Positions 4,330-28,989 of a DNA stretch of 64,000 nucleotides are shown here, piece by piece. Numbering within the stretch: the first letter of the stretch is position 1; each line of letters starts with the position of its first letter. The DNA comes from an uncultured Planctomycetia bacterium (GTDB lineage Bacteria > Omnitrophota > Gorgyraeia > 1-14-0-20-64-10). A program made the position numbers and the translations under genes. The notes beneath the pieces were generated by a model. It saw only the letters and a program-made list of their open reading frames with translations, made no database searches and was not told where the DNA came from. The stretch spans positions 1,891 to 65,890 of the forward strand of contig CAYJWF010000004.1 in assembly GCA_964373805.1 (NCBI GenBank), given 5' to 3'.

Positions 4330-4350
4330 GTCGACTTTAGACCCCTTTTG

Positions 4351-5379: not shown

Positions 5380-5400
5380 GGAAAATTCCTCCTGATAACA

Positions 5401-6138: not shown

Positions 6139-6164
6139 GGGACTCCTCTCCTTAAAATACGGCT

Positions 6165-6905
6165 CTAAGCTCCATTCTCATCCCGTTTGCCTAGAATAAA
6201 TTGGCTCACTACAGGATTCGTGGTGGAACGAATCTCCGTTGGCGTTCCTACCTCGATGATTTTCCCATCGTGCAGCATCGCGATTCGATCGGCGATCTTG
6301 TAGGCCGAAACCATATCGTGGGTCACCGCCACGGCAGTCACCTTTAACCGATCGTGCAGTTCCCGAATCAAATCGTTGATGGCATCGGCCATGATGGGAT
6401 CGACGCCGGTGGTCGGTTCGTCGCAGAGGATCACCTTGGGACGAATCGCCAGGGCCCGGGCCAGCCCCACCCGCTTACGCATCCCGCCGGAAAGCTCGGC
6501 CGGCTTTCGATCCTCGATGCCTTGAAGGCCCACCAGCTTCAAACAATCCTTCACCCGATCCTGAATCTCTGGATCGCTCATTCGGGTATGCTCCTTTAAC
6601 GCGAAGGCCACATTTTCCCCGACGGTCAACGAATCGAACAAAGCCGCTCCCTGGAACAGCATCCCAAACTTAAGCCTTAAAGCGGCCAGCACCTCCCCGG
6701 CAACGTGAGCGATGTCTTGACCGTCCACCAGGACCTGGCCCTGATCCGGCTTCACCAAACCGATGATGTGCCGCAGCAAAACCGTTTTCCCCCCTCCCGA
6801 TCGGCCAATGATCACCATCGTCTCGCCGTCCCGTATGGTCAGGTTCACCCCCTTGAGCACCGGATGGCCGTTGAAGTTCTTGTACAGGTTGATGATCTCA
6901 ATCAC
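6165..6905 (-). CDS. mlaF: ABC transporter ATP-binding protein MlaF
   Basis: Walker A GRSGGGKT, signature LSGGMRKRVGLARA, Walker B ILCDEP. Confidence 0.85.
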   Translation of the reverse strand: MIEIINLYKNFNGHPVLKGVNLTIRDGETMVIIGRSGGGKTVLLRHIIGLVKPDQGQVLVDGQDIAHVAGEVLAALRLKFGMLFQGAALFDSLTVGENVAFALKEHTRMSDPEIQDRVKDCLKLVGLQGIEDRKPAELSGGMRKRVGLARALAIRPKVILCDEPTTGVDPIMADAINDLIRELHDRLKVTAVAVTHDMVSAYKIADRIAMLHDGKIIEVGTPTEIRSTTNPVVSQFILGKRDENGA

Positions 6906-6915
6906 CCCGCCACCC

Positions 6916-7812
6916 CTAAGGAAACACGAAGTAAAAGAACGCGGTGAAGAAACAGTCGGCGGCGATGATCAGGATAAAGGAAACCACCACCGAAAAGGTG
7001 GTCGAGCGGCCCACCCCCTCAGCGCCGCCCGACGTCTCGAAACCTTCGTAACAGGCAACCGTCGCGATGATCACGCCAAAGACGACCGCCTTGAGGAGCC
7101 CCGTGAACAGATCCTTAAACCTTAAGGCGTCCCACGTCATGTTCATGTAAAGGCTGGAACCAATCCCCAGCTTGTAGACCCCCACGACGTACCCCCCCAG
7201 GATCCCCACGAGGTCCGCGTAGAGCGTCAAGATCGGCAGCATCGTCACCAGGGCCAGAAGCCGTGGGACCGCCAGATACCGGACCGGATCGGTAGCCAAG
7301 GTTTGCAGAGCGTCGATCTGCTCGGTCACCCGCATGGTCCCTACCTCGGCCGAGATGGAGGCCCCCACCCGACCGGCGATGACGAGAGCCGTGAGCACCG
7401 GCCCTAACTCCCGCACCATGGAGAGGGCAACCAAGGCGCCGATGTACAGCTCCGCCGAGATCTTTTGGAGCTGATAAGCCGTCTGAAGGGCCAACACCAT
7501 CCCGGTAAAGAGGGAGGTGAGGAAAACCAGGGGGAAGCTGGCGACCCCGACCCGCTCCATCTGGAGGAGGATGAGTTCCCATGAACGATTCCGAGCCAAC
7601 CGCTTCCAACGCCACGGGAAGGGGAGATCGACGACCCAACTCCTCCAGGGCAGCGCCAGGATCCCTCCCACCGTCTGCCAGAGGAGGACCGCGGAGCCCC
7701 CCAGGTATTCGAAGAAGGCCAGCGACCCTTCCCCTAAGCCCCCCACCAAACGGCGGGTTACCGCTTCCGCGCCTTGGCCGCTAGAATTTCTTTCGATGTT
7801 CCACCCCGACAA
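6916..7812 (-). CDS. mlaE: ABC transporter permease MlaE
   Basis: MlaE/YrbE-type multi-TM permease pattern; position in the mla cluster. Confidence 0.75.
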   Translation of the reverse strand: MSGWNIERNSSGQGAEAVTRRLVGGLGEGSLAFFEYLGGSAVLLWQTVGGILALPWRSWVVDLPFPWRWKRLARNRSWELILLQMERVGVASFPLVFLTSLFTGMVLALQTAYQLQKISAELYIGALVALSMVRELGPVLTALVIAGRVGASISAEVGTMRVTEQIDALQTLATDPVRYLAVPRLLALVTMLPILTLYADLVGILGGYVVGVYKLGIGSSLYMNMTWDALRFKDLFTGLLKAVVFGVIIATVACYEGFETSGGAEGVGRSTTFSVVVSFILIIAADCFFTAFFYFVFP

Positions 7813-9295
7813 ACTCCTCGTCCCGATCCAACCGAACCTGGACCCTTTGCCCGGAAGAAGACAACGGATACGTCAGCTCCAGCTCCTCGCGCGTCACCGA
7901 TTCCGGTTGAACTTCACGATCCACCTCATAAGCGAGGCCCACCGCCATTCGGTCTTCCGCCGTGGAACGGCGCACGCTCAGGCCCGAAACCGAAGGTCTC
8001 TCGCCCGGCACCTCTACAGGCCGCGCGGGAGACTCCACCCCCAGGGGTCCCACGCGCCAGCCTCCCCCAACCCCTAAACTTCTTTCGGTCGAGGAAAGCC
8101 GCACGTTGGAAAGGAAGTCGCTGCGGCCCAACCGTCGAAGATCGACGGTCCCCTCGATGAGCAGCACGCCGCTTGGCTTGGTGATTTGAGAGTTCTGGAT
8201 CTTTAAGATCGGCCCTTCGCCTCTAAAACGCAGCGTCGCCAGGCGGAATCTCTCCCATCCCAAGGACCCTCCTTCGCTGGAAATCTGGCCTTGGCTTTCC
8301 AGTTGACTTAAGGGGCCGGTCAAGGTGACTCGACCATGAATCGGACCGGAAAGGGTCCATCGCTGAGGTCCAGCAAACCAACGGATCCATCTGTCTAAAT
8401 CGGCCCTTTTAAGCTCCAAGTTCAAGTCCACCGGATAGGGTGGCTTTAAACGAATCCGACCATTCAAAGAGGCCTCTTGCCCCAAAAGCTCCGCCTGCAG
8501 GTGAAGATCGGAACGCTCCACCACCCACCGGACCGTCAGCTGTTCAGGAATTTCTTCCTCCTGGCGCGCCCAGATGGTGATCCTTCCCCCGACCCCATGA
8601 GAAGAAACCTCTTTCTTAAGAACCCCTTCTACCCGCCAGGCTCCTTGGAGTTCGGCCTGTTTCAAGCGGATCGCCTCCCGCGAAAGGGACCATTGGCTGA
8701 CGAAATGACTCCTGGGAAAGTGAGCTCCTTCTTCTACGTTTCTGGCTGCGCCAGCGGCCAGTCTAGGAAAGTCCCGCGCCTCAGCGAGGGGCTCCATCCA
8801 TCCTAAAAGGATCGGCTCCTTAACCGTGCCGCTCAACTCCACCATTCCTTTAAAGAACGGATGCTCCAGGGTGAGCCAACCGTCCCACCCGAGCTGCGAT
8901 GAGTTTTCCTTGGCGTCCTGAGCGGTAAGATGCAAGCGGCCCTGCGCTTCAAGAGGGAGGCCGCCCACCGACAGGGATACCCGAGTCACCGTGATAGAGG
9001 TCACGATACCGTCGCGAAAGAACATCTGTGGATTCTCGAAAGCGCTTCGACTGAAGAGTCGCCAAAGCGATCCTTCCATCTGAAGACGTTCAATCGCCAA
9101 AAAGGAGGGTTTTACGGAAACTCCATAAAGGATCAGTTTCTTGGGAGAAAAGGCCAATCGCTGAATGGATACCGGCGCCTTGAAAAGTTGACTTAAACCT
9201 TGGCTCAACCGAACGCGCCCAACCTGAAGGGCCCAGAAGAATCCTCCAGCGCTCACAAGACTCACGCAGAGAAACGCCCCAAAAAACCGTCTCAA
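7781..9295 (-). CDS. membrane-anchored periplasmic protein, possibly AsmA-like; carries an in-frame repeat element
   Basis: N-terminal TM helix then a 480-aa soluble region; no firm family match; contains repeat R1 encoding [12 protein letters not shown]. Confidence 0.4.
   Translation of the reverse strand: MRRFFGAFLCVSLVSAGGFFWALQVGRVRLSQGLSQLFKAPVSIQRLAFSPKKLILYGVSVKPSFLAIERLQMEGSLWRLFSRSAFENPQMFFRDGIVTSITVTRVSLSVGGLPLEAQGRLHLTAQDAKENSSQLGWDGWLTLEHPFFKGMVELSGTVKEPILLGWMEPLAEARDFPRLAAGAARNVEEGAHFPRSHFVSQWSLSREAIRLKQAELQGAWRVEGVLKKEVSSHGVGGRITIWARQEEEIPEQLTVRWVVERSDLHLQAELLGQEASLNGRIRLKPPYPVDLNLELKRADLDRWIRWFAGPQRWTLSGPIHGRVTLTGPLSQLESQGQISSEGGSLGWERFRLATLRFRGEGPILKIQNSQITKPSGVLLIEGTVDLRRLGRSDFLSNVRLSSTERSLGVGGGWRVGPLGVESPARPVEVPGERPSVSGLSVRRSTAEDRMAVGLAYEVDREVQPESVTREELELTYPLSSSGQRVQVRLDRDEEFVGVEHRKKF
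8733..8800. repeat. R1 repeat element, copy in AsmA-like gene
   Basis: TCTACGTTTCTGGCTGCGCCAGCGGCCAGTCTAGGAAAGTCCCGCGCCTCAGCGAGGGG. Confidence 0.8.
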
Positions 9296-11769
9296 ATGTG
9301 ACGTTCCGCAGGAGTAGGCGCCGGATGGAAGACCAGTCGATCGTTCTCCACCTCGATCAAGAGCGCTGCCCCCTCCTTGTAGTGTCCCGCGATGATCTCT
9401 TGCGCTAGGGGATCCTCCAAGTGCCGGGCAATGGTCCGTTTCAAAGGTCGGGCCCCATAGATCGGATCAAATCCCTTATCGATCAAGAACTCTTTGGCCG
9501 CGGGCGACAACTCGATGGCGATGCCCTGTTCCCGAACCCGGGCCATGACCTCGGCCATCTCGATCTCTACAATCCGATGGAGATCCTGCCGGGTCAAGGA
9601 TCTAAAAACAATGGTCTCATCCACTCGGTTCAAGAACTCCGGCTTAAAGGTTTTCTTCATCTCCTCCAAGAGCTGACCCTTCATGTCTTGATACGTCACC
9701 TCCTCCTTGGGGGTCTTAAATCCCAAGGAGCCCTGCTTACGCAGCAGCTCCGCCCCCAGGTTGGAGGTCATGATCAAGACCGTGTTCTTGAAATCGACCT
9801 TCCGGCCAAAGCTGTCGGTGAGCCTGCCCTCCTCCAAGACCTGCAGGAGAAGATTGAAGACGTCCGGATGGGCCTTCTCCAATTCGTCCAGGAGGACCAC
9901 GGAGTAAGGGCGCCGACGGACCTTCTCGGTCAACTGCCCGCCCTCTTCGTATCCCACGTAGCCGGGTGGGGCTCCCACCAGTCTTGAGACGTTGAACTTC
10001 TCCATGTACTCCGACATGTCGACCTGGATCATCGCCTCCTCATTCCCAAAGAGAAACTCGGCCAGCGCCCGGGCCAACAAGGTTTTCCCCACGCCGGTGG
10101 GCCCTAAGAAGATGAAAGAGCCGATCGGCCGTCGAGGGTCTTTGAGGCCTGCGCGGGAACGGCGAATGGCGTTGGCGATCGCCTCGATCCCCTCCTGCTG
10201 GCCGACCACCCGCTTATGGATCTCCTCCTCCATCCGCAGGAGTTTCTGCGTTTCCTTCTCCTCCAAACGGGAGACGGGGATGCCGGTCCATTTGGAGACG
10301 ATCTGGGCGATGTCCTCCTCGGTGATCACCGGCTGCGCCTCGGCCTTGGAACGGGACCATTCCCGCTTCGCCCGCTCCATCTCGGCCCTGGCCTCCCGCT
10401 CCTGATCCCGCAGCGACGCCGCCTTCTCGAAGTCCTGTCCCTTGACCGATGCCTCCTTTTCCTTGCGCAAGGTTTCGATCCGTTCCTCAACCTCCTTCAA
10501 GTTGGGAGGGGCGGTCAACACCATCAGCCTCGCCCGGGATCCGGACTCGTCCATGAGATCAACCGCCTTATCGGGCAGGTACCGCCCCGAGATGTAGCGG
10601 TCGGACAGCTTGGCCGCCGCCTCGAGCGCGGCGTCCGAGTACTTCACCTTGTGGTGGGCCTCGTACTTGTCCCTTAACCCCTTCAAGATGGCGATCGTCT
10701 CCTCGACCGTTGGGGGATCCACCACGATCGTCTGGAATCTTCGTTCCAGGGCTGCGTCCTTCTCGATGTACTTGCGGTACTCATCCAACGTGGTCGCCCC
10801 GATGCATTGGATCTCCCCACGGGACAAGGCCGGCTTCAAGATGTTGGAGGCGTCGATCGCCCCTTCCGCCCCACCGGCCCCCACCAAGGTATGCAGCTCA
10901 TCGATGAAGATGATCACATTCTCCGAGCGCCGGATCTCATCCATCACCGCCTTGATCCGCTCCTCGAACTGCCCTCGGTACTTGGTACCGGCCACCATCA
11001 AGGCCAGGTCCAGGATGACCACCCTTTTATCCTTCAAGATCTCCGGAACATCGCTCCGAATGACCTTTTGGGCCAAGCCCTCCACAATGGCGGTCTTTCC
11101 CACGCCGGCCTCCCCCAACAGAACCGGGTTGTTCTTGGTTCGACGGGAGAGAATCTGGATCACCCGTTCGATCTCGTTCTTGCGGCCGATCACCGGATCC
11201 AGTTTGTTTTCTCGGGCCAACTGGGTAAGATCCCGGCCAAAGGCGTCCAGGGCTGGCGTCTTGGTCTTGGCCGGAGCCGGCCCCATCGCGCTGTAGCCGG
11301 GAGCGGTCGATCCCAACAGCTCCATGACCTCCTGCCGGACCTTCCCGAGATCGAGCCCTAAGTTCACCAATACCTGGGCGGCGATTCCCTCCCCTTCCCG
11401 GATGAGGCCCAAAAGGAGGTGTTCGGTTCCGATGTAGTTGTGCCCTAAGTTCCGGGCCTCGTCCATCGCCAGCTCAATCACCTTCTTCGCCTTCGGGGTG
11501 AAGGGAATGTCGCCGGAGACAATGGTGGAAGGCCCCAGCTGCACCAGCTTCTCCACCTCCAATCGGATCTGGTCGGAGCTTAACCCTAAATTTTGCAGGA
11601 CCGCAGCCGCGACCCCTTCCCCCTCTCGGATGAGGCCCAGCAGGATATGCTCCGTCCCAATGTAATCATGATTAAACCGTTTGGCCTCTTCCTTGGCCAA
11701 AAGGATCACCTTCCGCGCCCGCTCGGTAAACCGATTAAACATATTCATCCCGTTACACCTCCTTTCCAC
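9292..11769 (-). CDS. clpC: ATP-dependent Clp protease ATP-binding subunit ClpC
   Basis: Two N-terminal Clp repeats, two AAA+ modules ([16 protein letters not shown]), UVR-like linker; 825 aa. Confidence 0.9.
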
Positions 11770-11893: not shown

Positions 11894-13057
11894 TTAGAGC
11901 GGCTTCGCCAAAGACTTCCAGCTCAGGACGCGGACGAACCCCCTTGTCTGCTCTTCATCTCCTGCGTGAATCAGGAAAGCCGATCTTGTTGTCCGTTTCG
12001 TGAGCCTCCCCCAATAGAAGAGATTCTTCAGAGAGTCAGGGGTGACGGTTTTCCCCGATTGGATCTCCACGGGGATCTCTCTGGATCCTTCTTGAAGGAT
12101 CAGGTCAACCTCATGGCCAGCCTTGTCTCTCCAGAAATACAGGTGAGGGGTTCGCCCTTGGTGCAGCCGGTGTTTGAGTATCTCGCAGACGACGAAGGTT
12201 TCAAAAAGGGCGCCGCGGAGCGGATGGCTTTTCAGGTGAGAAAGATTTTCAATGCCCAATAGGGAGCACGCCAGGCCGGTATCGGTCAGATACAGCTTTG
12301 GGCTCTTGACGATCTGCTTCTTGAAGTTTTGATGGAAGGGAGGAAGCAGGTAAGCCAGAAAGCTGGCCTCCAGGACGCCCAGCCACGCCCTGGCCGTGTT
12401 GTGCGTGATGCCACAGTCGTTGGCCAGATTGCTCAGGTTGAGGATACACCCCGTTCGGCCGGCGCAGAGCTGGAGGAACCGGTGAAAACTGGGGAGGTCG
12501 TGGACGTTCTTGATCTGCCGGACATCCCGCTCCAGATAGGTGCGGATGTAATCCGGGTACCAGTCGGCAGGCCGCAGCCGCTTGTCGTAGATTCTGGGAT
12601 ACAACCCCTGCAACAGGAGTTCTTCCGCAGAGGGCAGTCTCTTTAAAGTGGGAAGGAGCTCTGAGAGTGAGAATGGCATCAACGTCAGGATCCGCACGCG
12701 CCCGGCAAGGGTCTGAGACAGCTTCTCTAGAAGAAGGAAGTTTTGAGAGCCGGTCAGGATAAATAAGCCTTCCCCCTTATGCGTGTCCACGTGGGTCTGA
12801 AGATAAGAAAACAGCTCCGGGGCCCGCTGCGCCTCATCGAGGATGGCGCCTCCCCCGTATTCCTTGAGGAATCCGCGGGGATCCTGGGTAGCGTACGCCA
12901 ACGTATCCCGGTTTTCCAGAGAGACGTAGGCCTTTTGGGGGAACAGGTTTCGGGCCAGTGTGGTTTTCCCGGATTGCCTCGGTCCCAGGATGGCCACCAC
13001 CGGAAACTTTCTGGCCATCTCCACAATCTTCTTCTGCAAGGTCCTGACGACCATCAC
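11894..13057 (-). CDS. AAA+ ATPase of the COG1373/DUF4143 family
   Basis: Walker A GPRQSGKTTL, Walker B ILDEAQ, C-terminal DUF4143-like region. Confidence 0.7.
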   Translation of the reverse strand: MMVVRTLQKKIVEMARKFPVVAILGPRQSGKTTLARNLFPQKAYVSLENRDTLAYATQDPRGFLKEYGGGAILDEAQRAPELFSYLQTHVDTHKGEGLFILTGSQNFLLLEKLSQTLAGRVRILTLMPFSLSELLPTLKRLPSAEELLLQGLYPRIYDKRLRPADWYPDYIRTYLERDVRQIKNVHDLPSFHRFLQLCAGRTGCILNLSNLANDCGITHNTARAWLGVLEASFLAYLLPPFHQNFKKQIVKSPKLYLTDTGLACSLLGIENLSHLKSHPLRGALFETFVVCEILKHRLHQGRTPHLYFWRDKAGHEVDLILQEGSREIPVEIQSGKTVTPDSLKNLFYWGRLTKRTTRSAFLIHAGDEEQTRGFVRVLSWKSLAKPL

Positions 13058-13165
13058 AGGGCCAGGCTACCAGGATATGGATAAATTGTCAATACGATTT
13101 ACAATATATCCATTTTTGTCCGGCGCACCCGTCTCCAGACTTACGCCTGGGACCCTAGACCTTTG

Positions 13166-13216
13166 CGACCCCCCCCCTGATTCGTTTTGCTTCGCAAACC
13201 GAATCAAAACGGTGGG
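13166..13216. repeat. R2 hairpin repeat copy A (C-run / G-run clamped)
   Basis: CCCCCCCCCTGATTCGTTTTGCTTCGCAAACCGAATCAAAACGGTGGGGG; 41-nt core identical to copy B. Confidence 0.8.
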
Positions 13217-13271
13217 GGTGTGCCTTTTCGGGAAGGGTTACAGTCTTAAGTTTACCTGAGGGGCATGCGAG

Positions 13272-13320
13272 AAATGGCGAAAATCTTTTGGCTAACTGTT
13301 CATCACGCCCTAACCGAGGC
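13272..13320. repeat. direct repeat X1 (pairs with X2 at 13972-14020)
   Basis: AAAATCTTTTGGCTAACTGTTCATCACGCCCTAACCGAGG versus AAAATCCATGGCTAACTCTTCATTACGCCCTAACCGAAAAGG. Confidence 0.6.
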
Positions 13321-13384
13321 GGGGCGTTACCAGGGTTGGATAACTCCTGGAGTAGCCAGGAAGTTGGTTAGCCGGATAGTTTCG

Positions 13385-13621
13385 CTAGGCAAGAGCAACT
13401 TCGAGGGGTCTGCGCTTGAGGGCGCTGACCCGGAGGATGGAGAATCCGAGAATGTTGCCTTTCTTATCCACTTTCTCCATCACCTGGTCACTGGCTGTCT
13501 CTCGGAAGTACCCCTTTCGTCTTTCAAAGATGACTTCCAGGTAATCCCCCTCTGGATCGTACCAAAGCTTCACAATCTTGCGTGCCATATCACGGTCCCT
13601 CTTCGAACCTTGTCGGTCCAA
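13385..13621 (-). CDS. DUF2283-family small protein (putative antitoxin)
   Basis: KLWYDPEGDYLEVIF... pattern typical of DUF2283; pairs with the adjacent DUF4258-like gene; true start probably at the internal Met (~13588). Confidence 0.5.
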   Translation of the reverse strand: MDRQGSKRDRDMARKIVKLWYDPEGDYLEVIFERRKGYFRETASDQVMEKVDKKGNILGFSILRVSALKRRPLEVALA

Positions 13622-13884
13622 TAGGCGGTCAATACAAAGGCATCGTCACCTTGAACCTTGACCACCACGCACAGAAACTTGTCCCCTACTTGGGTCCCCA
13701 TGTAGAAACGGTGGTACAACCGCGCGCCGGGATCAGCCAAGGAACGGATGACAATCTGAGGAGCTGCCAATGTCTCGGCGATGGCATCTTCCATTCCCAC
13801 CATTTCTGGGTGTTCTCGTATATGTGCCCACCGTTCCTCCGTAAGACGGATGAGCCGGCCTTCAAAGTCACGCAGGCGCTTCAT
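13570..13884 (-). CDS. DUF4258-like protein (putative toxin of a DUF4258/DUF2283 pair)
   Basis: 104 aa; ...FLCVVVKVQGDDAFVLTAYWTDK... RelE-fold-like pattern; overlaps the partner gene. Confidence 0.45.
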   Translation of the reverse strand: MKRLRDFEGRLIRLTEERWAHIREHPEMVGMEDAIAETLAAPQIVIRSLADPGARLYHRFYMGTQVGDKFLCVVVKVQGDDAFVLTAYWTDKVRRGTVIWHARL

Positions 13885-13971
13885 TGCCTCGGGATGCCGA
13901 CGTTCGGTAAAAGAACCTCCAAGTCATCCATGGCCATGATACCTCTAAGTATAGCCGATGGACACCAGAGA

Positions 13972-14020
13972 GATGCCAAAAATCCATGGCTAACTCTTCA
14001 TTACGCCCTAACCGAAAAGG
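13972..14020. repeat. direct repeat X2
   Basis: See X1; the pair brackets the DUF2283/DUF4258 module just inside R2 copies A and B. Confidence 0.6.
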
Positions 14021-14137
14021 AGGGAATTCGAATCTGTTTAGCTCTTTGCGACAGCGACGAGCGCGCCCGACGGCAATCCATCCGTCATTTCGACGACCGG
14101 AGGGAGGAGAAATCCCGCTTTTGAGATTTCTCGTCGT

Positions 14138-14188
14138 CCCCACTGATTCGTTTTGCTTCGCAAACCGAATCAAAACGGTGGGGACTCC
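14138..14188. repeat. R2 hairpin repeat copy B (direct repeat of A)
   Basis: CCCCACTGATTCGTTTTGCTTCGCAAACCGAATCAAAACGGTGGGGAC. Confidence 0.8.
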
Positions 14189-14264
14189 TCGAAATGACAA
14201 TTTTCTCTCAAACCGCTAAACATCTATTCATCTATTTAGAGGGTATCCCCGGGCCCCTGCGGAC

Positions 14265-15257
14265 TTACGCCTGGGACCCTATGCCGAGGGACTGCTCCAA
14301 GCCTGCCGCAAGGATCGAGACCAAGTCCGGCGAAACTCCGAAACCCTTCAAGATCGCATCCATCGAGAACAGCTCCTGCGCGAAGTAAAGACGTAGAACA
14401 TCCGCCGCGACCCGAACCGGATAAACATGTTCCAGCGGACCCAAATAAGTAACTCGGGAAAGACCATGGATTTTCTGGAAGGCGGTTGTTACCGCATCCG
14501 GGGATCGCTCCGGAACGTAATGAATCCGCCGATTCTCACCGACAAGTCCTTCGGCCAACTCCGATTCCCCCAGCAGAACCAGCCGCCCGGCAAACCGATC
14601 CAGCCTCCGGAGAACCTGGACCAAATCAGCATCTAACGTAGCGGCATCCAGAACAACCGCCTGAATCCCCTCGACGCTTGCCTCCGCCATCGCAACCGCC
14701 ATCGCAATCCCCCGATCCCCTTCCTCTACGTTTCTGGCTGCGTTAGCGGCCAGTCCAGGAAAGTGCCGCGCATCAGCGCGGCCTTCCTCCAGCCCAGAGG
14801 GATTACTTTCTCCCGTGGTACCTGGTTTCGCCTCCCGCTCTGACCCTGAGAAATTTCTTAACAATCGAGGAAGGAATCCCATCACCTTACCAGGAATAGC
14901 CCCCTCCCCACCCCGCCAGCGGGAGATCGTCTCCCGACTCACCGGCTTCCCGCCGTTGTACCCTGCACCTGCCAGCGCCTGAGCCATCCCTTCCTGCGTC
15001 AACCCCAGCCAATCCATCACCTGGCCAAACTCTGTATCACCAGCGACTTCCGAATCCGCTGCATCCTCCTCCAGCCCGGCGAAGGCAGCGGAGGAGCCTC
15101 TGGACCCCCCTGGAAAAGCCGCCTCCAGCTCAGAGCTGGCGGCACTTTCCAGGCCAGCCTGGGCACGCAGCGCAAGGGCAACGGAAGGCCGAACAAGCGT
15201 TAGAGCCAAGAAAAGCCCCAACGAGCTTCGCCAACGGTCCATTCGTTCTCTTCTCAT
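14265..15257 (-). CDS. secreted hypothetical protein of the GLEE-motif family, with embedded repeat and an HTH-like segment
   Basis: Signal-peptide-like N-terminus; several (A/S)GLE(E/Q) motifs; C-terminal ...ILAAGLEQSLGIGSQA; segment GLTQEGMAQALAGAGYNGGKPVSRETISRW resembles an HTH; carries repeat R1. Confidence 0.45.
   Translation of the reverse strand: MRRERMDRWRSSLGLFLALTLVRPSVALALRAQAGLESAASSELEAAFPGGSRGSSAAFAGLEEDAADSEVAGDTEFGQVMDWLGLTQEGMAQALAGAGYNGGKPVSRETISRWRGGEGAIPGKVMGFLPRLLRNFSGSEREAKPGTTGESNPSGLEEGRADARHFPGLAANAARNVEEGDRGIAMAVAMAEASVEGIQAVVLDAATLDADLVQVLRRLDRFAGRLVLLGESELAEGLVGENRRIHYVPERSPDAVTTAFQKIHGLSRVTYLGPLEHVYPVRVAADVLRLYFAQELFSMDAILKGFGVSPDLVSILAAGLEQSLGIGSQA
14712..14800. 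repeat. R1 repeat element, longest copy, in GLEE-family gene
   Basis: CTCTACGTTTCTGGCTGCGTTAGCGGCCAGTCCAGGAAAGTGCCGCGCATCAGCGCGGCCTTCCTCCAG; includes hairpin CCGCGC-ATCA-GCGCGG. Confidence 0.8.
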
Positions 15258-15409
15258 AGGCAGACCATCGAATACGTTTGAGTTTACCTGAAGAATTGGG
15301 AAAGCGCAAGATTCCTGACTGTCTATCGTTACGACTTACTCCTGGTGGGCTTGGCGCTGCGAAAGCTGTTGACACCCATTTCGTCACTTAGGACAATAAA
15401 TGACGACAC

Positions 15410-16117
15410 ATGCCTTTCATCTTGTTGGTCATTTTTGGTCTGGCCGGTTGCGCCACAAAGGCTGGTCCAGCCCCCACTGCGGGATTCGTGGCGGCGGCTC
15501 GGCTTACCCAACCGACGGGCCTTCCCTTTCACAAGGCCTGGCAGAAACCGGAATTCGACTGGGGTCAGTACGGAACCATTTCGGTCAGCCCCGTCAACAT
15601 CGATTACCTTCCCCAGATGGACTGGTGGAAAAAGTTGGAACGGGGTCAAGGCTTTCAAGCCGATGCCAAGAAGCTGGCCGAATACACGCGTCAGACCTTT
15701 GAAGAGGCGTTCCGCGAAGATCCGAACCAACGCTTTCAGGTAGTCGATGCGCCTCAAACCGATACCCTGATTCTGGAGATCGCCCTGGTGGAGATCGTCC
15801 CCAGCAAGATCATGTTAAACACCTTAGGCTACGCCCCCTTTGTCGGCAGCGCCTTTAAGCTGATCCGAAACACCAAGTCCAAAAGCTCCGTGGCCTTCGA
15901 GGCCCGGTTCCGAGACGCCCAAACCGGCGAGGTCGTGGCCCAATTCGCCGACCGGGAGTTCGAGAAGATGTCGCCGGTGAATGTCAAGGATGTCACCTGG
16001 TACGGCCATGCCGAGAGCATCCTCTGCGAATGGGCCGACCAGTTCGTCCGGATGGTGAACCGAAAAGAAGGGGAACAGATCCCCGACTCCAAACCGTTCC
16101 ACCTGAAGCCCTGGTAA
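15410..16117 (+). CDS. lipoprotein, DUF3313-like
   Basis: Lipobox LAGCAT after a short signal peptide; 235 aa; one of very few plus-strand genes in the first 35 kb. Confidence 0.5.
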   Translation: MPFILLVIFGLAGCATKAGPAPTAGFVAAARLTQPTGLPFHKAWQKPEFDWGQYGTISVSPVNIDYLPQMDWWKKLERGQGFQADAKKLAEYTRQTFEEAFREDPNQRFQVVDAPQTDTLILEIALVEIVPSKIMLNTLGYAPFVGSAFKLIRNTKSKSSVAFEARFRDAQTGEVVAQFADREFEKMSPVNVKDVTWYGHAESILCEWADQFVRMVNRKEGEQIPDSKPFHLKPW

Positions 16118-16132
16118 GCAGGTTGTTTGCCC

Positions 16133-16185
16133 AGCCCCCCCCCCCCAAGCTTCGCTTTGCGAAGCAAAACGCGGGGGGCCAGCCG
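16133..16185. repeat. R2 hairpin repeat copy C, between convergent genes (possible bidirectional terminator)
   Basis: CCCCCCCCCCCCCAAGCTTCGCTTTGCGAAGCAAAACGCGGGGGG between the lipoprotein gene (+) and mcsB (-). Confidence 0.6.
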
Positions 16186-16186
16186 A

Positions 16187-17230
16187 TTAGAGGGTTTCTC
16201 GCAGGAGTTTGGCGCGGCGGGCGTCCCGTTCGGAAGGGTTTAAGCCGCGGCCCTCCAGCTTCTGAAGATGGGCCGGCTGGGTCTGGATGAAGAGGCGGTT
16301 CACCAGTCCCCGCTCGAGATTGTTCATTAAACCCAGATCGATACCGAGACGCACCAAAGACAAAAGCTCGACCGTCTCGTTGGAGGTGATAAGGTGGGCG
16401 GATTTCAGCGTCCCCAACGCCCGCCAGATCCGATCCTCGAGAGCCTGACGGCTTTGGGTCAGGAGCGCCCGACGGGCCGCCTCCTCCTGCTCGATCACCT
16501 GTTTGATCAACCTTCCCAAGTTGTCCAGGATCTCCTCCTCGGAGACGCCGAGGCTCACCTGGTTGGACAACTGGAAGAGGTTGCCGGAGGCCTCGGTCCC
16601 TTCCCCGTAAAGGCCGCGCGCCGTCAATCCCAATTTGGAAATCGCATGGAGAACCCGGTTGATCTGCTTGGTCATCACGAGACAGGGTATGTGCAGCATA
16701 CAGGAAGCTCGCATCCCGGTTCCTACGTTGGTGGGGCAGGCCGTCAGATACCCCCACTGGGGAGAAAAGGCGTAGGCGAGATGCCCCTCCAACTGGGCAT
16801 CGATCTGACTCAACACCACCCAGGCCTCGGGGAGATTGAACCCCGACTGCAACACTTGAAGCCGCAGGTGATCCTCTTCATTGATCATGAGGGCCAAGAT
16901 CTCCCGGTCGCTCACCACGACCGCCTTTTCTCCGGAGGGGGACGCATGCTCGGGACTGATCAGGTGCCGCTCCGTGAGGAAGAGACGGTCCAGCTCCGTC
17001 AGTTCCGATAGGGCCAAGAGGAGCGACCCTTTCAAGTAGGCGCAAGTTCCCACCGCCTCCTCGATCCGGGCCAAGATTTCGACCCGCCGTTTCTTGCCGG
17101 CCCAGTGAGGAAATGGGGTGTCGCTCAAATTCCTCGCCAGCCGGATCCGGGAGGACATCACGATCTCTCCCTTGGGGCCGGTTCCCCGGAGCCATTCCCC
17201 GGTTTGGTGGACCAGATCGTCAAGGGTCAT
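16187..17230 (-). CDS. mcsB: protein arginine kinase McsB
   Basis: ATP:guanido phosphotransferase catalytic-domain signature (CPTNVGTGMRAS), 347 aa. Confidence 0.85.
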   Translation of the reverse strand: MTLDDLVHQTGEWLRGTGPKGEIVMSSRIRLARNLSDTPFPHWAGKKRRVEILARIEEAVGTCAYLKGSLLLALSELTELDRLFLTERHLISPEHASPSGEKAVVVSDREILALMINEEDHLRLQVLQSGFNLPEAWVVLSQIDAQLEGHLAYAFSPQWGYLTACPTNVGTGMRASCMLHIPCLVMTKQINRVLHAISKLGLTARGLYGEGTEASGNLFQLSNQVSLGVSEEEILDNLGRLIKQVIEQEEAARRALLTQSRQALEDRIWRALGTLKSAHLITSNETVELLSLVRLGIDLGLMNNLERGLVNRLFIQTQPAHLQKLEGRGLNPSERDARRAKLLRETL

Positions 17231-17261
17231 GGAATTACTGCAAACGTATTTAATCGAGAGA

Positions 17262-17345
17262 CGTATCCGCTCGCCCTGAGCCTGTCGAAGGGCGAACCTG
17301 TCTTCGTGCTTCGACTCTGCTCAGCACGAACGGTTGTCACGGCGA
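17262..17345. repeat. R3 nested-hairpin repeat (conserved loop TGAGCCTGTCGAA / TTCGACWNNGCTCA), mcsA-mcsB intercistronic copy
   Basis: TCGCCC-TGAGCCTGTCGAA-GGGCGA followed by TTCGTGC-TTCGACTCTGCTCA-GCACGAA. Confidence 0.7.
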
Positions 17346-17359
17346 ATCTCCAAATCGCC

Positions 17360-17974
17360 TCATCTTTTAGGTCCCTTGCCTTTCACCCTAGATTCTTCAC
17401 CCTTCACTGCCTTTGCCTTTTCCTCCACGGCTCGAACCCGATCCCGAAGACGGGCCGCCTCCTCAAAGGCCTCCGCGGCGACCGCCTTCTTGAGGTTCTC
17501 CTTAAGCCGCGCCAGATCTGTCTCTTCCCCTATGCTTTTAGCGGCATCAGCAGCCCGTCCAGAAAAGTGCCGCGCATCAGCGCGGCCTTCACTTTTCTTG
17601 GCCGCCTTCGGCTGCGAAACGGAAGGACCCTTTCCCACATGTTGGGTGGAACCGTGGATCCGCTTTAACAGGGGAACCAGGTACGGCTCAAACGTCTCGT
17701 AACAGTTCCCGCAGCCAAGCCGACCAACCTTGCGAAACCCTTCGTAAGTCATTCCACACCTGGGGCAGGAAAGCTTGGTTCGCTCGGTCGACTCTCCTTT
17801 AAGCCCGAAGTCGGCGAGGCCGGCCAAAAGGCCTGCTAACCCGAACTCCTGCCCTGCCGCAGTTCCTTTCTCGTGCGCGCAGCTCTCGCAGAGATGGAGC
17901 TCGCGGGTCTGGTCGTCAATGATCTCGGTCAGATGAACCGTCGCCTCGTTTTGTCCACACAGGTCACAGGTCAC
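17360..17974 (-). CDS. mcsA: McsA, activator of protein arginine kinase (zinc-finger / UVR domain)
   Basis: CxxC pairs (CDLCG...CESC; CPRCG...CGNC) and a C-terminal UVR motif (AVAAEAFEEAARLRDRV); carries a partial R1 repeat. Confidence 0.75.
   Translation of the reverse strand: MTCDLCGQNEATVHLTEIIDDQTRELHLCESCAHEKGTAAGQEFGLAGLLAGLADFGLKGESTERTKLSCPRCGMTYEGFRKVGRLGCGNCYETFEPYLVPLLKRIHGSTQHVGKGPSVSQPKAAKKSEGRADARHFSGRAADAAKSIGEETDLARLKENLKKAVAAEAFEEAARLRDRVRAVEEKAKAVKGEESRVKGKGPKR
17533..17600. repeat. R1 repeat element, partial copy (3' half), in mcsA
   Basis: ...CCAGAAAAGTGCCGCGCATCAGCGCGGCCTTCAC; the 33-nt core is identical to the 14712 copy. Confidence 0.75.
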
Positions 17975-17984
17975 AAGCTTTCCT

Positions 17985-18012
17985 CAAAAAGGTACCAGGT
18001 ACCATTTTAAAA
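17985..18012 (-). terminator. putative rho-independent terminator of ilvE (GGTAC-CTG-GTACC hairpin plus U-run)
   Basis: Minus-strand RNA reads ...AAAAUGGUACCUGGUACCUUUUUGAG directly after the ilvE stop. Confidence 0.5.
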
Positions 18013-18017
18013 CCCCA

Positions 18018-18036
18018 ACGGGGTCAGACCCCATCA
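18018..18036. repeat. P1 palindrome, intergenic (ilvE-mcsA)
   Basis: CAACGGGGTCAGACCCCATC. Confidence 0.8.
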
Positions 18037-23679: not shown

Positions 23680-23687
23680 ACCCTTTA

Positions 23688-23730
23688 GATGGTACCAGGT
23701 ACCTTTCTAAAATGGTACCTGATACCATTT
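23688..23730. repeat. P2 twin hairpins GGTACCAGGTACC + GGTACCTGATACC (lnt 3' end / lysS upstream)
   Basis: GATGGTACCAGGTACCTTTCTAAAATGGTACCTGATACCATTTTA. Confidence 0.8.
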
Positions 23731-23732
23731 TA
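23706..23732 (-). terminator. putative rho-independent terminator of lnt
   Basis: Minus-strand RNA ...AAAAUGGUAUCAGGUACCAUUUUAGAAAGG just after the lnt stop. Confidence 0.45.
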
Positions 23733-25178
23733 CGGCCTTCCTCGATGCAAAGATAGGGAATCCACCCCGGATTCAAAGCGAGGAACTGAGGAGATCCGCC
23801 GCCCGGCCGGATCGATGAAGCCGGACCACCCGGTGTTGGCGGCGCGAACCACCCAAACCCGGTTTTCAATCGCACGGAACACGCAGGCCTGCAGATGCTG
23901 AAGCGAGGCAGCCGACCGATGAAACCAGGCGTCGTTGGTGATGACCAGGAGCCACCGGGCCCCTTCCCGAACAAAACGTCGAGACAAATCTGGAAAGAGA
24001 TCCTCGAAGCAGATGAGCACACTGAAGGGAAGGACGTCGTGGGTCTTGAGTCTTGAGTCTTCAGTAAAAGGCTGCCGAAAAGTAGCCGGTTGGAAAACGG
24101 TGAATCGACTTCCGGGGGAGAAATTCCCCATTAAAACGAACCGGCGTAGCCATCCAAAAAAGAACTCGAGGGGGAGGTATTCCCCGAAAGGGACCAGATG
24201 AACCTTGTCGTAACGTTCCACGAGATTCCCTTGGGGGTTTAAAAGGCAAGCGCTGTTAAACATCCTTTCGGTACCTGATACCGTTTCAGTAACCGGTGCC
24301 CCCACCAGTAAAGGAGTGTCCGTGGCTTGCGCCAATTTCTGGAGCCGTTCGAAGATCTCGGGGTCCTCCAAGTATCCAGGTACCGCCGTCTCCGGCCAGA
24401 CGATGAGGTCCGGACGGGATTGAGCGGCTTGACCCGTTAACGTTTCGTAGCGATGCCAGATCTCCTCTTGGAAAACCTCATCCCACTTCTCGGTCTGCGG
24501 GATGTTGCCCTGCACCACCGCAACCCTGAAAGACAGTCGTGGGTCGTGGGTCGTGGGTCGCGAGTAAACCTCAAGCTGGTGAATGCGAAAGGAGCCGTAG
24601 GCCAGCGCAGCAAGCAAACAGGCGCCTGCCAACGCTATAGCGGATAGTCCTTTCCTATACGCTGTACGCTGGACGCTATACGCTAACCAAAGGGCCACGT
24701 TGACCAGAACCACGAGAAAAGAGACCCCGTAGACACCGGTCAAATCGGCGATCTGAATGACCGGAATCCAATTCCACTGGGTGTGAGCGATCAGGTTCCA
24801 TCCGAAGCCGGTCAACCAGGTGTTGCGAAGATACTCCAGAAGAACCCACGCCGCCGGCAAAGTGAGAAGGGGTGTACGGTGTACGGTGTGCGGCGTACGG
24901 CGAAGACCACTCACCATTCTCTGGGCGAGCCAGCCCCAGATCCCAAAATACAGAGCCAGGTATCCGATCAGTAAAACCGTCCCGGGAATCGTCACGTATC
25001 CCACCCACCAGATCGTCCCAGCAAAGAAGAGGATCCCGATAAGATAGCTTTGTAGGAAGGCCTTTCTTGGGGAACTTTTCTCCAGCGCAAGCAGCCAAGG
25101 CAGATAGGCCACCCACGCTAGCCACCCCAAATCAAAAGGCGGGAAACTTAAGACGAAAAGAAGGGCAGAGACAGCCAA
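23730..25178 (-). CDS. lnt: apolipoprotein N-acyltransferase
   Basis: N-terminal multi-TM region plus C-terminal CN-hydrolase domain (CFEDLFP); carries three in-frame heptamer tandem arrays and one GGTACCTGATACC palindrome. Confidence 0.85.
   Translation of the reverse strand: MAVSALLFVLSFPPFDLGWLAWVAYLPWLLALEKSSPRKAFLQSYLIGILFFAGTIWWVGYVTIPGTVLLIGYLALYFGIWGWLAQRMVSGLRRTPHTVHRTPLLTLPAAWVLLEYLRNTWLTGFGWNLIAHTQWNWIPVIQIADLTGVYGVSFLVVLVNVALWLAYSVQRTAYRKGLSAIALAGACLLAALAYGSFRIHQLEVYSRPTTHDPRLSFRVAVVQGNIPQTEKWDEVFQEEIWHRYETLTGQAAQSRPDLIVWPETAVPGYLEDPEIFERLQKLAQATDTPLLVGAPVTETVSGTERMFNSACLLNPQGNLVERYDKVHLVPFGEYLPLEFFFGWLRRFVLMGNFSPGSRFTVFQPATFRQPFTEDSRLKTHDVLPFSVLICFEDLFPDLSRRFVREGARWLLVITNDAWFHRSAASLQHLQACVFRAIENRVWVVRAANTGWSGFIDPAGRRISSVPRFESGVDSLSLHRGRP
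24036..24900. repeat. four separate heptamer tandem arrays inside lnt
   Basis: (GTCTTGA)x2.4 near 24044; (GTCGTGG)x3.4 near 24529; (AGCGTMY)x4 near 24640-24690; (GTGTACG)x4 near 24866. All are kept in frame (encode SRLKT, PTTHDPR, AYSVQRTAYRK, RTPHTVHRTP). Confidence 0.7.
24268..24284. repeat. P2 single hairpin GGTACCTGATACC inside lnt
   Basis: In frame; encodes ...ETVSGTER... Confidence 0.7.
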
Positions 25179-25618: not shown

Positions 25619-28606
25619 TCATGCACCATGACATCGTTTGTATTTCCTGCCACTGCCGCAGTAACAGGGATCGTTCCTTCCCACCTTGGGATGTTCCCGT
25701 CGAAATGGGTGGGAGCTCTCCCGCGCTTCGGCCATCGGACCGGCTCCCACTCCCGGAACAAACGGTTCGTCGGTCCCTTCACGAAACGATTCGGGGTTTA
25801 TCAACGAAGGCGTCGGAGTCGCCGCCTTCGGGGCTTCTGGATGAAGGAACTGTGTCGGCTCCAAAACCCGAGGCCTCGTCTCGGTCCGAACCGCTTGGAT
25901 CTTGAAGATAAGCTCCACGATCTCTTGTCGGACCGATTCCACCATCCGGGTGAACATCTGGTACGCCTCGTGCTGATACTCGACCAACGGATCCTGCTGG
26001 CCGTAGACCCGATAGCCGATCCCTTCCCGCAGGTGGTCCATGGCGTAGAGATGATCCTTCCACTTGGTGTCGATGACCTGAAGCATTACCCACTGCTCCA
26101 GCCGCCGCATCGACCCTTCCCCCAATACCGATTCTCGGGCCTCGTAGGCCTGATGGGCGGCGGTGAGGAGGCTCTGCGCCAGATCTTCTCTTCCTATACG
26201 TTTCTGGCTGCGCCAGCGGCCAGTCGAGGAAAGTCCCGCATCAGCGGGGCTCCCCAACTTCGCGAAGTCGGGGATCGCCACCGAAAACCGGCCTTGGATC
26301 GCCTCGGACAATCCGGAGAGATTCCACTCCTCCGGATCTTGATGAGACAGCGCATAAAGATCCAACAATCCCTGGATCGATTCCTCCACCATCTCGAGGA
26401 TCTTAGGCTTCAACTCTTTACCCTCCAAGACCGCCCGTCGCTCCCGGTAGATCACCTCCCGCTGGCGGTTCATCACGTTGTCGTACTCCAAGAGACGTTT
26501 CCGAATCTCGAAGTTGTGCGTCTCCACCCTCTTCTGGGCCGTCTCGATCGCCCTGGAGAGCCACGGGTGTTCGATCGCCTCCCCTTCGGGGATGGCCGCC
26601 TTGGTCCACTCGAGAAGTCGGTTCTCTCCGAAGATGCGGATCAAGTCGTCGTCCAGGGAAAGGTAGAATCGGCTAGAGCCAGGATCCCCTTGTCGGCCGG
26701 AGCGCCCGCGAAGCTGGTTATCGATCCGGCGGGACTCGTGCCGCTCGGTGCCGAGGACGTGCAGACCCTTCAAGCCTACCACCTGGGCATGTTCCGCCTC
26801 CACTTGGGTCTGCACCTTCGGTTCGATCTCCTTCAAAAGCTCGGCCTCGACTTCCTGTGAAAATTCAGGGACCATCTCCGCCGGAGGCGGGCCCTGCGCT
26901 TGCCCGCCCTCATTTTGGCGGGGGGACCCTCCCTGAGCGAGCTGGTCCTTTCGGCGTTTCAGCTCCGCGGCGATGAGGAATTGGGGATTCCCTCCCAAAA
27001 GGATATCGGTCCCCCGCCCCGCCATGTTGGTGGCGATGGTCACCGCCTTGAATCGCCCGGCCTGAGCGACGATCTGGGCCTCCTGCTCGTGGTATCGGGC
27101 GTTGAGGACGTGGTGCGGGATCTGGCGGCGTTTCAGAAGCTCGCTTAACCGTTCCGACTTCTCAATGGAAACGGTGCCCACCAGGACCGGCCGGCCTTCC
27201 CCGTGCAGCTGGGTGATCTCCTCTTCGATGGCTTGGAACTTTTCCCGTTCGGTCTTGTAGACCACATCCGCGTAGTTGGTTCGAATCAAAGTCCGGTTGG
27301 GGGGGACGGTGACCACCTCCAGACGATAGATCTGGTGGAACTCGGCCGCTTCGGTGGAGGCGGTGCCGGTCATCCCTGCCAGCTTATCGTACATGCGAAA
27401 GTAATTCTGGAAGGTGACCGTGGCCAAGGTCTGGTTTTCCCGTTCGATCCGAACCCCCTCCTTGGCCTCGATCGCCTGATGGAGCCCGTCCGACCAGCGA
27501 CGACCCGGCATGAGCCGGCCGGTAAATTCGTCGACGATCACCACCTGGCCGTCCTTGACCATGTAGTCGACGTCCCGCCGGTATAAGGTGTGGGCCCGGA
27601 GGGCCTGGTTGATGTGATGAACGAGGGTGATGTTGGTGTCCTCGTAGAGGTTGCCCACCTGGAGAAGCCCCTCGGCCTTCTTGACACCCTCCTCGGTTAA
27701 GATCGCCGAGTGGGCCTTCTCATCCACGGAGTAGTCCGCGCCCTTCGCCAGTTTCGGAACGATCCGATCGATCTTGAAATAAAGCTCGGTCGACTCCTCA
27801 GCCGGCCCGGAGATGATGAGGGGCGTTCTCGCCTCATCGATCAAGATCGAGTCGACCTCATCCACGATGGAATACGACAATCCCCTCTGGACGCATTCCT
27901 CCACGGAAACCACCATGTTGTCCCGAAGATAATCAAAGCCGAACTCGTTGTTCGTCCCGTAGGTGACGTCGCATGCGTAAGCGGCCTTACGATCCGAGGC
28001 ACCCATCTCGTGTTGAATCGCCCCGACGGTTAACCCTAAGCTTTCGTAGATCGGTCCCATCCAGTTCCGATCCCGTTTGGCGAGGTAGTCGTTCACCGTC
28101 ACCAGATGGACTCCGCGCCCCAAGAGGCCGTTTAAAAAGACGGCCAGGGTGGCCACCAGGGTCTTGCCCTCACCGGTAGCCATCTCGGCAATCTTTCCCT
28201 GATGGAGAACCATTCCTCCGATCAGCTGCACGTCGAAATGGCGCATGTTCACCGTCCGACGGGCCGCCTCGCGAACCAAGGCGAAGGCCTCTGGGAGAAT
28301 CTCCTCCATCGCCCGATTCTCGATCTTTAAGCGACGCTTCCGTTCCCCCTTCAGTGCGTCTTCGTCGTTGGGATCGATGGAATCGCCCAGTGGGACGGTG
28401 CCATCGGAATCGATTCCGCCTCCGAGTTGTGCGATCCGGGCCTTCAGACGTTGACGCAACGCCTCGGCCTTTTCCTTTAATTGGGAATCGCTTACATCCT
28501 TCACCGTCGGCTCCAGGGCGCTGATCCTTGCCACAACAGGCATCAGCCGCTTCAAGAACCGCTCGTTCTGCGAGCCGACCAGTTTATTGAGGAACCAGTT
28601 CAACAT
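25619..28606 (-). CDS. secA: preprotein translocase ATPase SecA
   Basis: DEAD-like motor motifs and C-terminal zinc-binding [14 protein letters not shown]; 995 aa; carries an in-frame R1 repeat in a variable C-terminal region. Confidence 0.95.
26196..26265. repeat. R1 repeat element (RPE-like), copy in secA
   Basis: CTATACGTTTCTGGCTGCGCCAGCGGCCAGTCGAGGAAAGTCCCGCATCAGCGGGG...; same element at 8733-8800, 14712-14800 and partially at 17533-17600. Confidence 0.8.
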
Positions 28607-28640: not shown

Positions 28641-28976
28641 GAAGCATTCGATACAGCATACCGCCAACCTCCCTCATCAAGTCTTCAATAAAAGTACTCT
28701 TCTGGCTAAAGCCTAAATCGGTTGACAGGAGATACTGGGTCTCTAACTCGCATAGGGAACTGTAAGCAATGGACAAAAACTGTTTGTACTCTTTATTGGA
28801 TTGCCGCCCGTACCCTCAGCGACATTCGATGGAATGGCTACCGCTGACCTTCTCATCTGTTGCAATAAACCGTATTTCTCATCTTGAGGAAAGCCGTTGG
28901 TCAACTTATACAGCTCGATCACCAACCGATAAGACTTCTGCCACACGATCAAGTCCTTAAAGCTTTTAGTCTTCAC
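28620..28976 (-). pseudogene. four-helix-bundle protein (TIGR02436-like), frameshifted
   Basis: ORF 28743..28976 encodes the N-terminal two helices (WQKSYRLVIELYKLTNGFPQDEKYGLLQQMRRSAVAIPSNVAEG) and stops early. The expected C-terminal half (LETQYLLSTDLGF...MLYRML) is readable immediately downstream in another frame. Confidence 0.5.
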
Positions 28977-28989
28977 TATACGCCATCCG

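Follow-up and report, generated by a model that had tools for sequence, protein, structure and literature searches.

The stretch of DNA analysed here (the window: 64,000 nt of contig CAYJWF010000004.1, assembly GCA_964373805.1, from an uncultured bacterium of the phylum Omnitrophota) carries on its minus strand the gene mcsA, which encodes a protein arginine kinase activator, and within mcsA a 63-nt copy of a dispersed repeat that contains two hairpins. The genes and features of this locus, with repeat copies scored by covariance model (CM), are the following.

17360-17974, minus strand: mcsA, protein arginine kinase activator of 204 aa, with a zinc-finger N-terminus, a variable linker and a UVR motif.
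16187-17230, minus strand: mcsB, ATP:guanido phosphotransferase (Pfam PF00217, E = 1.2e-65), the downstream partner gene of mcsA.
17529-17591, plus strand (antisense to the gene): 63-nt repeat copy in mcsA (CM score 86.5 bits, E = 7.5e-21).
17569-17586, no strand assigned: hairpin 2 of the mcsA copy (GCCGCGC-ATCA-GCGCGGC, seven G-C pairs), the core of a 27-nt match to 14760-14786.

The open reading frame (ORF) at 17360-17974 is McsA, with zinc-finger pairs of the CxxC type, a UVR motif at the C-terminus (Pfam PF02151, residues 154-185, E = 3.4e-07) and an adjoining mcsB. Cysteines C3/C6/C29/C32 and C70/C73/C88/C91 were invariant among 22 aligned sequences, and several of the 3816 homologues of this protein were named arginine kinase activator or UvrB/C-motif protein of Candidatus Omnitrophica. 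In agreement with the initial annotation of this DNA, which had reported a repeat match in frame in the McsA linker, the segment is located after the second zinc finger and before the UVR helix, where it codes for approximately E129-I148 (EGRADARHFSGRAADAAKSI) and parts of the S128 and G149 codons. The annotation had placed the match at 17533-17600, which is the right locus slightly shifted, and had taken it for a partial copy, a description not borne out by homology with the other copies, from which the mcsA member is a complete though diverged 63-nt unit.

The reported identity of 33 nt to a copy in the 14712 region corresponds to a real match, the longest exact run of which is 27 nt. Thus, the 27-mer AAAGTGCCGCGCATCAGCGCGGCCTTC occurs exactly twice in the window (14760-14786 and 17564-17590), as compared with a chance expectation of 0.00 from 100 shuffles of the window, and the match reaches 33 of 34 nt, with a single G/A mismatch, when the upstream GTCCAG is counted. 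Identity between the mcsA copy and this second copy, which starts at 14725, was 94% (32/34) for the half that contains hairpin 2 as opposed to 71% (24/34) for the half that contains hairpin 1, and the match therefore appeared partial at first reading. In the mcsA copy only hairpin 1 is degraded (3 of 8 pairs are broken), hairpin 2 having remained intact. The mosaic identity of these two copies, which lie 2.8 kb apart, would be consistent with a shared subfamily or with gene conversion.

The dispersed nature of the repeat was likewise confirmed, except that the window contains four copies rather than the two of the initial annotation. Members were recovered in three ways, namely by repeat finding, by a degenerate pattern and by the CM, and those outside mcsA are listed below.

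8733-8795, plus strand: 63-nt copy in the gene for a 504-aa membrane-anchored protein (7781-9295, minus strand), upstream of mlaEFD (CM score 94.7 bits).
14725-14787, plus strand: 63-nt copy in a 330-aa hypothetical ORF (14265-15257, minus strand), where it encodes EGRADARHFPGLAANAARNVE (CM score 100.7 bits); the partner in the match described above.
26195-26254, plus strand: 60-nt copy in secA (25619-28606, minus strand), at a variable loop within the wing/scaffold domain (CM score 85.1 bits).
7270-7332 of contig L005, from a Planctomycetia metagenome-assembled genome (MAG): fifth copy, 82% identical (CM score 89.9 bits).

The four window copies scored between 85 and 101 bits (E <= 2e-20) and the next best match in the window scored 16.5 bits. 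All four are on the plus strand within minus-strand ORFs, at a density of 4 copies per 64 kb. Matches of approximately 16.5 bits at window positions 32529-32609 and at 12908-12992 of a related Omnitrophica contig (L007), the latter in the gap after secA, were rejected as generic arrangements of two hairpins followed by a ribosome-binding site. A stretch of 33 nt at 15139-15171, within the same 330-aa ORF as the 14725 copy, was 76% complementary to part of that copy and in the opposite orientation; with a CM score of only 6.1 bits, it is probably a chance resemblance or a very decayed copy.

The copy on L005 fills the whole gap from the TAA that ends a DEAD-box helicase gene to the ribosome-binding site and start (AGGAGG-N8-GTG) of typA, and is most simply regarded as untranslated, in the 5' untranslated region (UTR). 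The open frame through this copy would also permit TypA to start further upstream, at an ATG or GTG, and so to be extended at its N-terminus. The same copy was the single match to the pattern GCNGCNNNAGCRGCCMGTCNAGRAAAGT in a scan of 185,579 representative genomes (one per species), a set that does not include the source species of the window. Pattern scans of JGI metagenome contigs and IMG/VR gave no match, nor did BLASTN of the element against PLSDB plasmids and INPHARED phages. Given one match in the genome scan and none in the metagenome and viral scans, the family is rare in the collections scanned. The hairpin-1 half was 88-91% identical between the Omnitrophota and Planctomycetia MAGs.

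The absence of the segment from related genes was evident from comparisons with a sister genome (run SRR22387996) and with more distant orthologues. Contig L009 of the sister genome, which carries the gene for the 504-aa protein, aligned with window positions 4300-9060 over 4679 nt (92.3% nucleotide identity), the alignment being interrupted by a single gap, of 63 nt, that coincides exactly with the 8733 element. Thus, the sequence is GGATGGAT[GGAGCC...ACGTAGA]AGAAGG in the filled allele and GGATGGAT|AGAAGG in the empty one, with zero duplicated bases. A target-site duplication, which had been suggested by GGAAG-like direct repeats that flank the element, was ruled out by this empty site. The sister mcsA on contig L006, which encodes the closest orthologue (P0002; 77% aa identity, 179 as opposed to 204 aa), lacks 66 nt at the corresponding place. 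None of 21 aligned McsA orthologues, P0002 included, has the segment, as the initial annotation had predicted of a repeat-derived linker, nor is it present in 28 orthologues of SecA or 13 of the 504-aa protein; the SecA sequence before insertion, according to the orthologues, was KLG|REDL. A sister orthologue of the 330-aa host was also sought on L006, where the neighbouring ORF proved unrelated, and no empty site was obtained for the 14725 copy. The element in mcsA is not an artefact of assembly, since an identical 204-aa McsA is encoded in four independently assembled Logan contigs and the element was detected there too (in L001). These findings demonstrate that the 63-nt segment is an insertion, absent from the sister genome and from all more distant orthologues compared.

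Conservation of the repeat is at the level of DNA rather than of peptide. On the sense strand of the host genes, one frame is open across the unit and on the opposite strand two or three are open. All four window copies keep the host reading frame, and three are read in the sole open sense frame to give ..GRADARHFPGLAANAARNVE.. and variants (...ARHFPGLAANAARNVE). The SecA copy, in contrast, is in a different codon phase and is read partly in another frame, which stop codons interrupt in other copies and which happens to be free of them here. Nucleotide identity among copies (82-88%) was not below peptide identity. A 96-aa concatenate of the four peptide versions gave no match at E <= 10 among 5.8 billion proteins, a search that was insensitive for short segments, since proteins of the window in that database (P0001 and P0121) were also missed.

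The layout of the element on the plus strand is the flank CTTCY, then TCTACGTTT, hairpin 1 (CTGGCTGC-GNNA-GCGGCCAG), TCCAGGAAAGT, hairpin 2 and CTTCC. Hairpin 1, which starts 9 nt from the left end, has eight pairs including one G-T pair, and hairpin 2, which ends 5 nt from the right end, has 5-7 GC-rich pairs. The two hairpins (CTGGCTGC/GCGGCCAG and GCCGCGC/GCGCGGC) are unrelated in sequence and stand in tandem. Over the five copies, 90% of the cells assigned to pairs were paired, compared with 25-51% in controls with slid partners. One compensatory pair was seen (CG twice, GC twice), and each arm of hairpin 2 is two bases shorter in the SecA copy, which has one extra G at its start, so that both arms are shortened together. 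Terminal inverted repeats are absent, as indicated by ends of TCTACG... and ...GGCTCC (TCTACGTT versus GGAAGGCC, the reverse complement of the other end). Searches of Rfam identified no family that covers any copy at gathering score, the best matches around the 14725 copy being 14-16 bits with E near 1. Three other readings of the sequence were dropped: a hammerhead-like CUGAUG...GAAA, which had no Rfam match; a solitary CRISPR repeat (GTTTC...GGAAAG), which had no Rfam match and no arrays in the genome scan; and a sigma-54 promoter (TGGC...GCA), the spacing of which was unfit by inspection.

A short motif adjoins every copy. The plus-strand 5' flanks of the five copies are CCTTCT, CCTTCC, TCTTCC, TCTTCC and ACCTCC (i.e., CTTCY or CCTCC), so that on the sense strand RGAAG or GGAGG directly follows each copy; the background frequency of CTTCY is 0.4% of positions. 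This flank is native host sequence for the 8733 copy, as seen from the empty site, and for the SecA copy, as seen from the orthologues, and in L005 the ribosome-binding site of typA occupies this position. RGAAG is purine-rich, Shine-Dalgarno-like and common in Glu, Gly and Arg codons, and the flanking motif resembles the far end of the element itself.

Consequences of the insertion for McsA are probably slight. An AlphaFold model based on 22 sequences was confident for the zinc-finger part and for the UVR helices, and in it residues 115-147 had pLDDT values below 50 and no secondary structure, in line with the disorder that the initial annotation had proposed to check for. Linkers of orthologous McsA proteins range from approximately 16 to approximately 39 residues and are not conserved in sequence. 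Because the linker is naturally hypervariable in length, the window linker, at 38 residues, stays within the orthologue range, and the 21 added residues are most likely functionally neutral, as judged from the model and the orthologues. For McsA biology this is a deflationary result, the extra segment being most likely neutral cargo rather than an adaptive change in the adaptor. Nor is it as unusual as the initial annotation implied, given the natural variability of the linker and the documented occurrence of in-frame palindromic repeats in functional genes (Rickettsia palindromic elements, RPEs, and intragenic REPs, the latter also in PVC bacteria). On the sense strand of the mcsA copy, hairpin 2 is followed by ACTTTTCTGG and the two together match a simple terminator pattern; translation through the hairpin should normally prevent termination.

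The mcsA segment is very probably an in-frame insertion of a mobile dispersed repeat. The element would be a small, non-autonomous mobile repeat of REP, RPE or IS200-IS605 type, with a length of 63 nt that equals 21 codons, and selection would keep only those insertions that leave an open frame in tolerant loops; its presence within genes would be tolerated because the frame is kept. Copies may be spread, or precisely excised, through single-stranded DNA by an HUH-type transposase acting in trans, in the manner of PATE or REP/RAYT systems. Mobilisation in trans of a non-autonomous element is proposed because constant ends, the lack of inverted repeats and of a target duplication, hairpins at the ends, a flank motif and scarless presence or absence fit HUH elements, and the HUH step itself is a tentative possibility. 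On a related Omnitrophica contig (L007 19689-20033), a 114-aa TnpB-like fragment (Cas12f1-like_TNB) was noted, and elements of the IS200/IS605 family thus exist in Omnitrophota. A broader proposal, which is rather unlikely, is that the repeat represents an undescribed family of ultra-small single-stranded-DNA mini-transposons of PVC-group bacteria that targets Shine-Dalgarno-like RGAAG, is suited to residence in coding sequence by its length and single open sense frame, and has moved between phyla. If this were true, the element would seed new linker peptides and, at intergenic sites, would supply cassettes of a hairpin plus a ribosome-binding site.

Several observations weigh against a mobile element of this kind. 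No transposase of any kind is encoded in the 64-kb window. GC skew was negative along the whole plus strand, and the minus strand carries nearly all genes, which suggests, for this 64-kb fragment, that the plus strand (the top strand if the motif is 5' of the element) is the leading-strand template, in contrast to the IS608 rule. For the left-hand motif, no obvious guide sequence with which it could pair was seen, and in a canonical REP the GTAG tag would stand on the other side of the hairpin. The known copies number only five, which makes statistics on structure and orientation thin, and a shuffle control for covariation among the five sequences was not significant (144/500), which leaves evolutionary support for the structure weak. 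Sense orientation was seen in all four coding copies, as compared with approximately 25-33% per copy expected from an open-frame filter alone, and since the window copies share one strand and one gene orientation, a replication bias and a transcription bias are indistinguishable. Absence from the sister genome fits recent insertion and precise excision alike, and the neutrality proposed for McsA draws on a model and on orthologue variability.

Spread without a transposase, in which the 63-nt block would be copied by illegitimate or microhomology-mediated recombination or by gene conversion via the GGAAG-like sequence shared by one end of the element and the target, is improbable. The lack of a transposase in the window speaks for it, and the copies are bracketed by similar purine runs, with GGAAGG, GGAGCC or GGGAGCC at the sense start and RGAAG after the element; the longest such microhomology is 8 nt (GAGGAAGG), at the 14725 copy, and the mosaic identity of this copy and the mcsA copy indicates exchange between copies. 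At the 8733 empty site, however, the left flank (GGAT) is only weakly homologous to the ends of the element, and microhomology of 4-5 nt fails to explain precise 63-nt units at five unrelated loci or the copy found in a second phylum. Recognition by a protein is suggested instead by the constant ends and conserved hairpins.

Action of the hairpins as cis-acting RNA, within mRNAs or antisense transcripts of the host genes (as a site for processing or stability, a transcription attenuator or a shared target of co-regulation), appears quite improbable. Consistent with such a role, the hairpins are maintained despite sequence change, the orientation relative to the host gene is the same in 5 of 5 copies, a 7-bp GC hairpin with ACUUUUCU after it, in the mcsA and L005 copies, has a terminator-like score, and G-U pairs favour the antisense strand, with z-scores down to -5.0. 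On the other hand, the sister genome functions without the element in two host genes, which have, like the other hosts, no evident functional link, and hairpin 1 of the mcsA copy is degraded, as noted above. Moreover, structure on the sense strand would be unwound by translating ribosomes, no Rfam match reached the gathering threshold, and the E-value search around the 14725 copy was at chance level.

Acquisition of the repeat for its peptide, i.e., as a selected short linear motif of approximately 21 aa (..GRADARHFPGLAANAARNVE..) such as a docking site or degron, is very improbable. In three window copies out of four, and in the longest ORF that spans the L005 copy, the same frame is indeed read and the peptides are similar, and sense orientation is always seen with only one sense frame open, an excess over the open-frame expectation given above. 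Nevertheless, the peptide of the SecA copy, which is largely in another frame, is unrelated, the L005 copy is most simply 5' UTR with the ribosome-binding site after it, and the sister genome lacks the segment; the nucleotide identities and the (insensitive) peptide search described above also argue against a peptide module.

Elements of the MITE type (inverted-repeat transposable elements of miniature size) that derive from DDE-transposase insertion sequences are recognised by terminal inverted repeats of 15-30 bp and a target-site duplication. A classical MITE of this type, arising by deletion and moved by cut-and-paste, is scarcely credible here, for although the element is small, dispersed, structured and non-coding on its own, and intragenic MITEs that create in-frame fusions are known (PMC10969869), it is excluded by the absence of both features, the ends not being inverted repeats and the empty site showing no duplication, and at 63 nt it is shorter than the usual 70-300 bp.

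Other repeats were noted in the window, some of them next to mcsA. A second insertion at this locus lies at 17231-17359, where approximately 130 nt separate the mcsA stop from the mcsB start, as opposed to a 4-nt gene overlap in sister contig L006. This extra DNA contains a palindromic repeat, CCGCTCGCCCTGAGCCTGTCGAAGGGCGAACC (core 17267-17309), with an inverted partner, 81% complementary, at 59259-59301, 42 kb away. A further dispersed family consists of REP-like 46-nt palindromes (CCCC..GATTCGTTTTGCTTCGCAAACCGAATCAAAACGG..GGGG) at 13172-13217, 14138-14183, 40623-40668, 60109-60154 and 16136-16186, those positions that were checked being between larger ORFs. Short palindromes of one design (GGTACCAGGTACC, GGTGCCAGGCACC, GGGGTCAGACCCC and GGTGTCAGACACC) with flanks of A/T runs, one of which is just upstream of mcsA and has a terminator-like score, may be the terminators of this organism or a further repeat family. 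Their positions are as follows.

17982-18032, 23682-23735, 24266-24306, 33392-33437, 63801-63847, 2119-2152, 3618-3651, 47786-47834, 58675-58697 and 39412-39464: short palindromes.

A cyclic di-GMP-I riboswitch match at 63753-63865 scored 36.6 bits against a gathering score of 35 bits and may be a false positive because it overlaps a GGTGCCAGGCACC palindrome. The mcsA-mcsB pair is approximately 4.4 kb from clpC (9292-11769). The region 11894-16120 contains a DUF4143 AAA ATPase, overlapping ORFs of approximately 80-100 aa, the 330-aa ORF and, on the opposite strand, a DUF3313 protein, has a lower GC content (0.559) and looks like inserted material that splits a clpC-type operon. At 28976-29853, an ORF with an RF-1/PCRF domain starts at position 60 of the PCRF profile and is accompanied by a second, overlapping ORF, an arrangement that would fit the programmed +1 frameshift of prfB, the gene for release factor 2 (RF2).

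Among known systems, one of the closest is that of the RPEs, which are in-frame repeats inside protein-coding genes (Ogata et al. 2000; summarised in PMC10969869 and PMC3733652). As with RPEs, a dispersed palindromic repeat lies in frame in unrelated, functional housekeeping genes, adds a short peptide at a surface or linker, is conserved at the DNA level and is absent from orthologues; here 4 of 4 window copies were in frame in ORFs, and absence from orthologues was noted for three hosts. The likeness is one of behaviour rather than of membership: the element works like an RPE, is not known to be related to RPEs in sequence, and at 60-63 nt is outside the RPE-1 range of approximately 100-150 bp. 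The hosts also differ (Alphaproteobacteria for RPEs, Omnitrophota and Planctomycetota here), as does the demonstration in the present case of a defined flank motif (CTTCY/RGAAG) and of an empty site without duplication.

REP/RAYT systems comprise short GC-rich stem-loops with G-T pairs, single or paired, intragenic dimers of which encode 20-30 aa (PMC3733652). REPs have been reported in the PVC superphylum (Opitutus terrae and Rhodopirellula baltica) and are thought to be mobilised by HUH tyrosine transposases (PMC3733652), none of which, RAYT included, was found in the 64-kb window. GTAG is present in three window copies, with GTAA, GTAT and ATAG in others. Unlike the tag of GTAG/CGTC-tagged REPs, on the sense strand it follows hairpin 1 on the 3' side at a distance of 4 nt, and is not 5'-adjacent to the stem; the plus strand reads CTAC-GTTT-stem, which mirrors the geometry described in PMC3733652, and the element has no terminal tag of the REP kind. 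REPINs are two inverted copies of the same REP (PMC3116915), whereas the two hairpins here, being unrelated and in tandem, do not form an inverted pair.

Elements of the IS200/IS605 family have no target-site duplication, a transposon-adjacent motif, hairpins at the left and right ends and gene-less derivatives known as PATEs (PMC10055086, PMC3119063). The present element matches four IS200/IS605-type end and target features that were tested: it has no terminal inverted repeats, it makes no target duplication, it is inserted directly 3' of a 4-5-nt motif and it has a subterminal hairpin at each end. In addition, its motif resembles its own 3' end and its presence or absence between close genomes is scarless. 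It differs from described PATEs in being far smaller at 63 nt, in having no known parent insertion sequence with tnpA or tnpB, in an apparent top strand that is not where the lagging-strand-template rule predicts, and in the lack of any identified guide-to-motif pairing at the left end.

No description of such an element in Omnitrophota was found in the literature, and the present findings extend the occurrence of selfish DNA inside functional protein-coding genes, including essential or regulatory ones (secA and mcsA), to this poorly known, uncultured phylum. The case is an unusually clean one, with presence or absence of 63 nt at 92% identity, exact ends, no duplication and a defined motif, so that the mechanism is directly testable, and the copy in a second phylum adds to its value. 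Such insertions inflate the apparent diversity of linkers and could be mistaken for lineage-specific features in the annotation of MAG proteins. Compared with known systems as a whole, the element resembles RPEs and intragenic REPs functionally and differs from these families in its size, the geometry of its tag and the architecture of its hairpin dimer.

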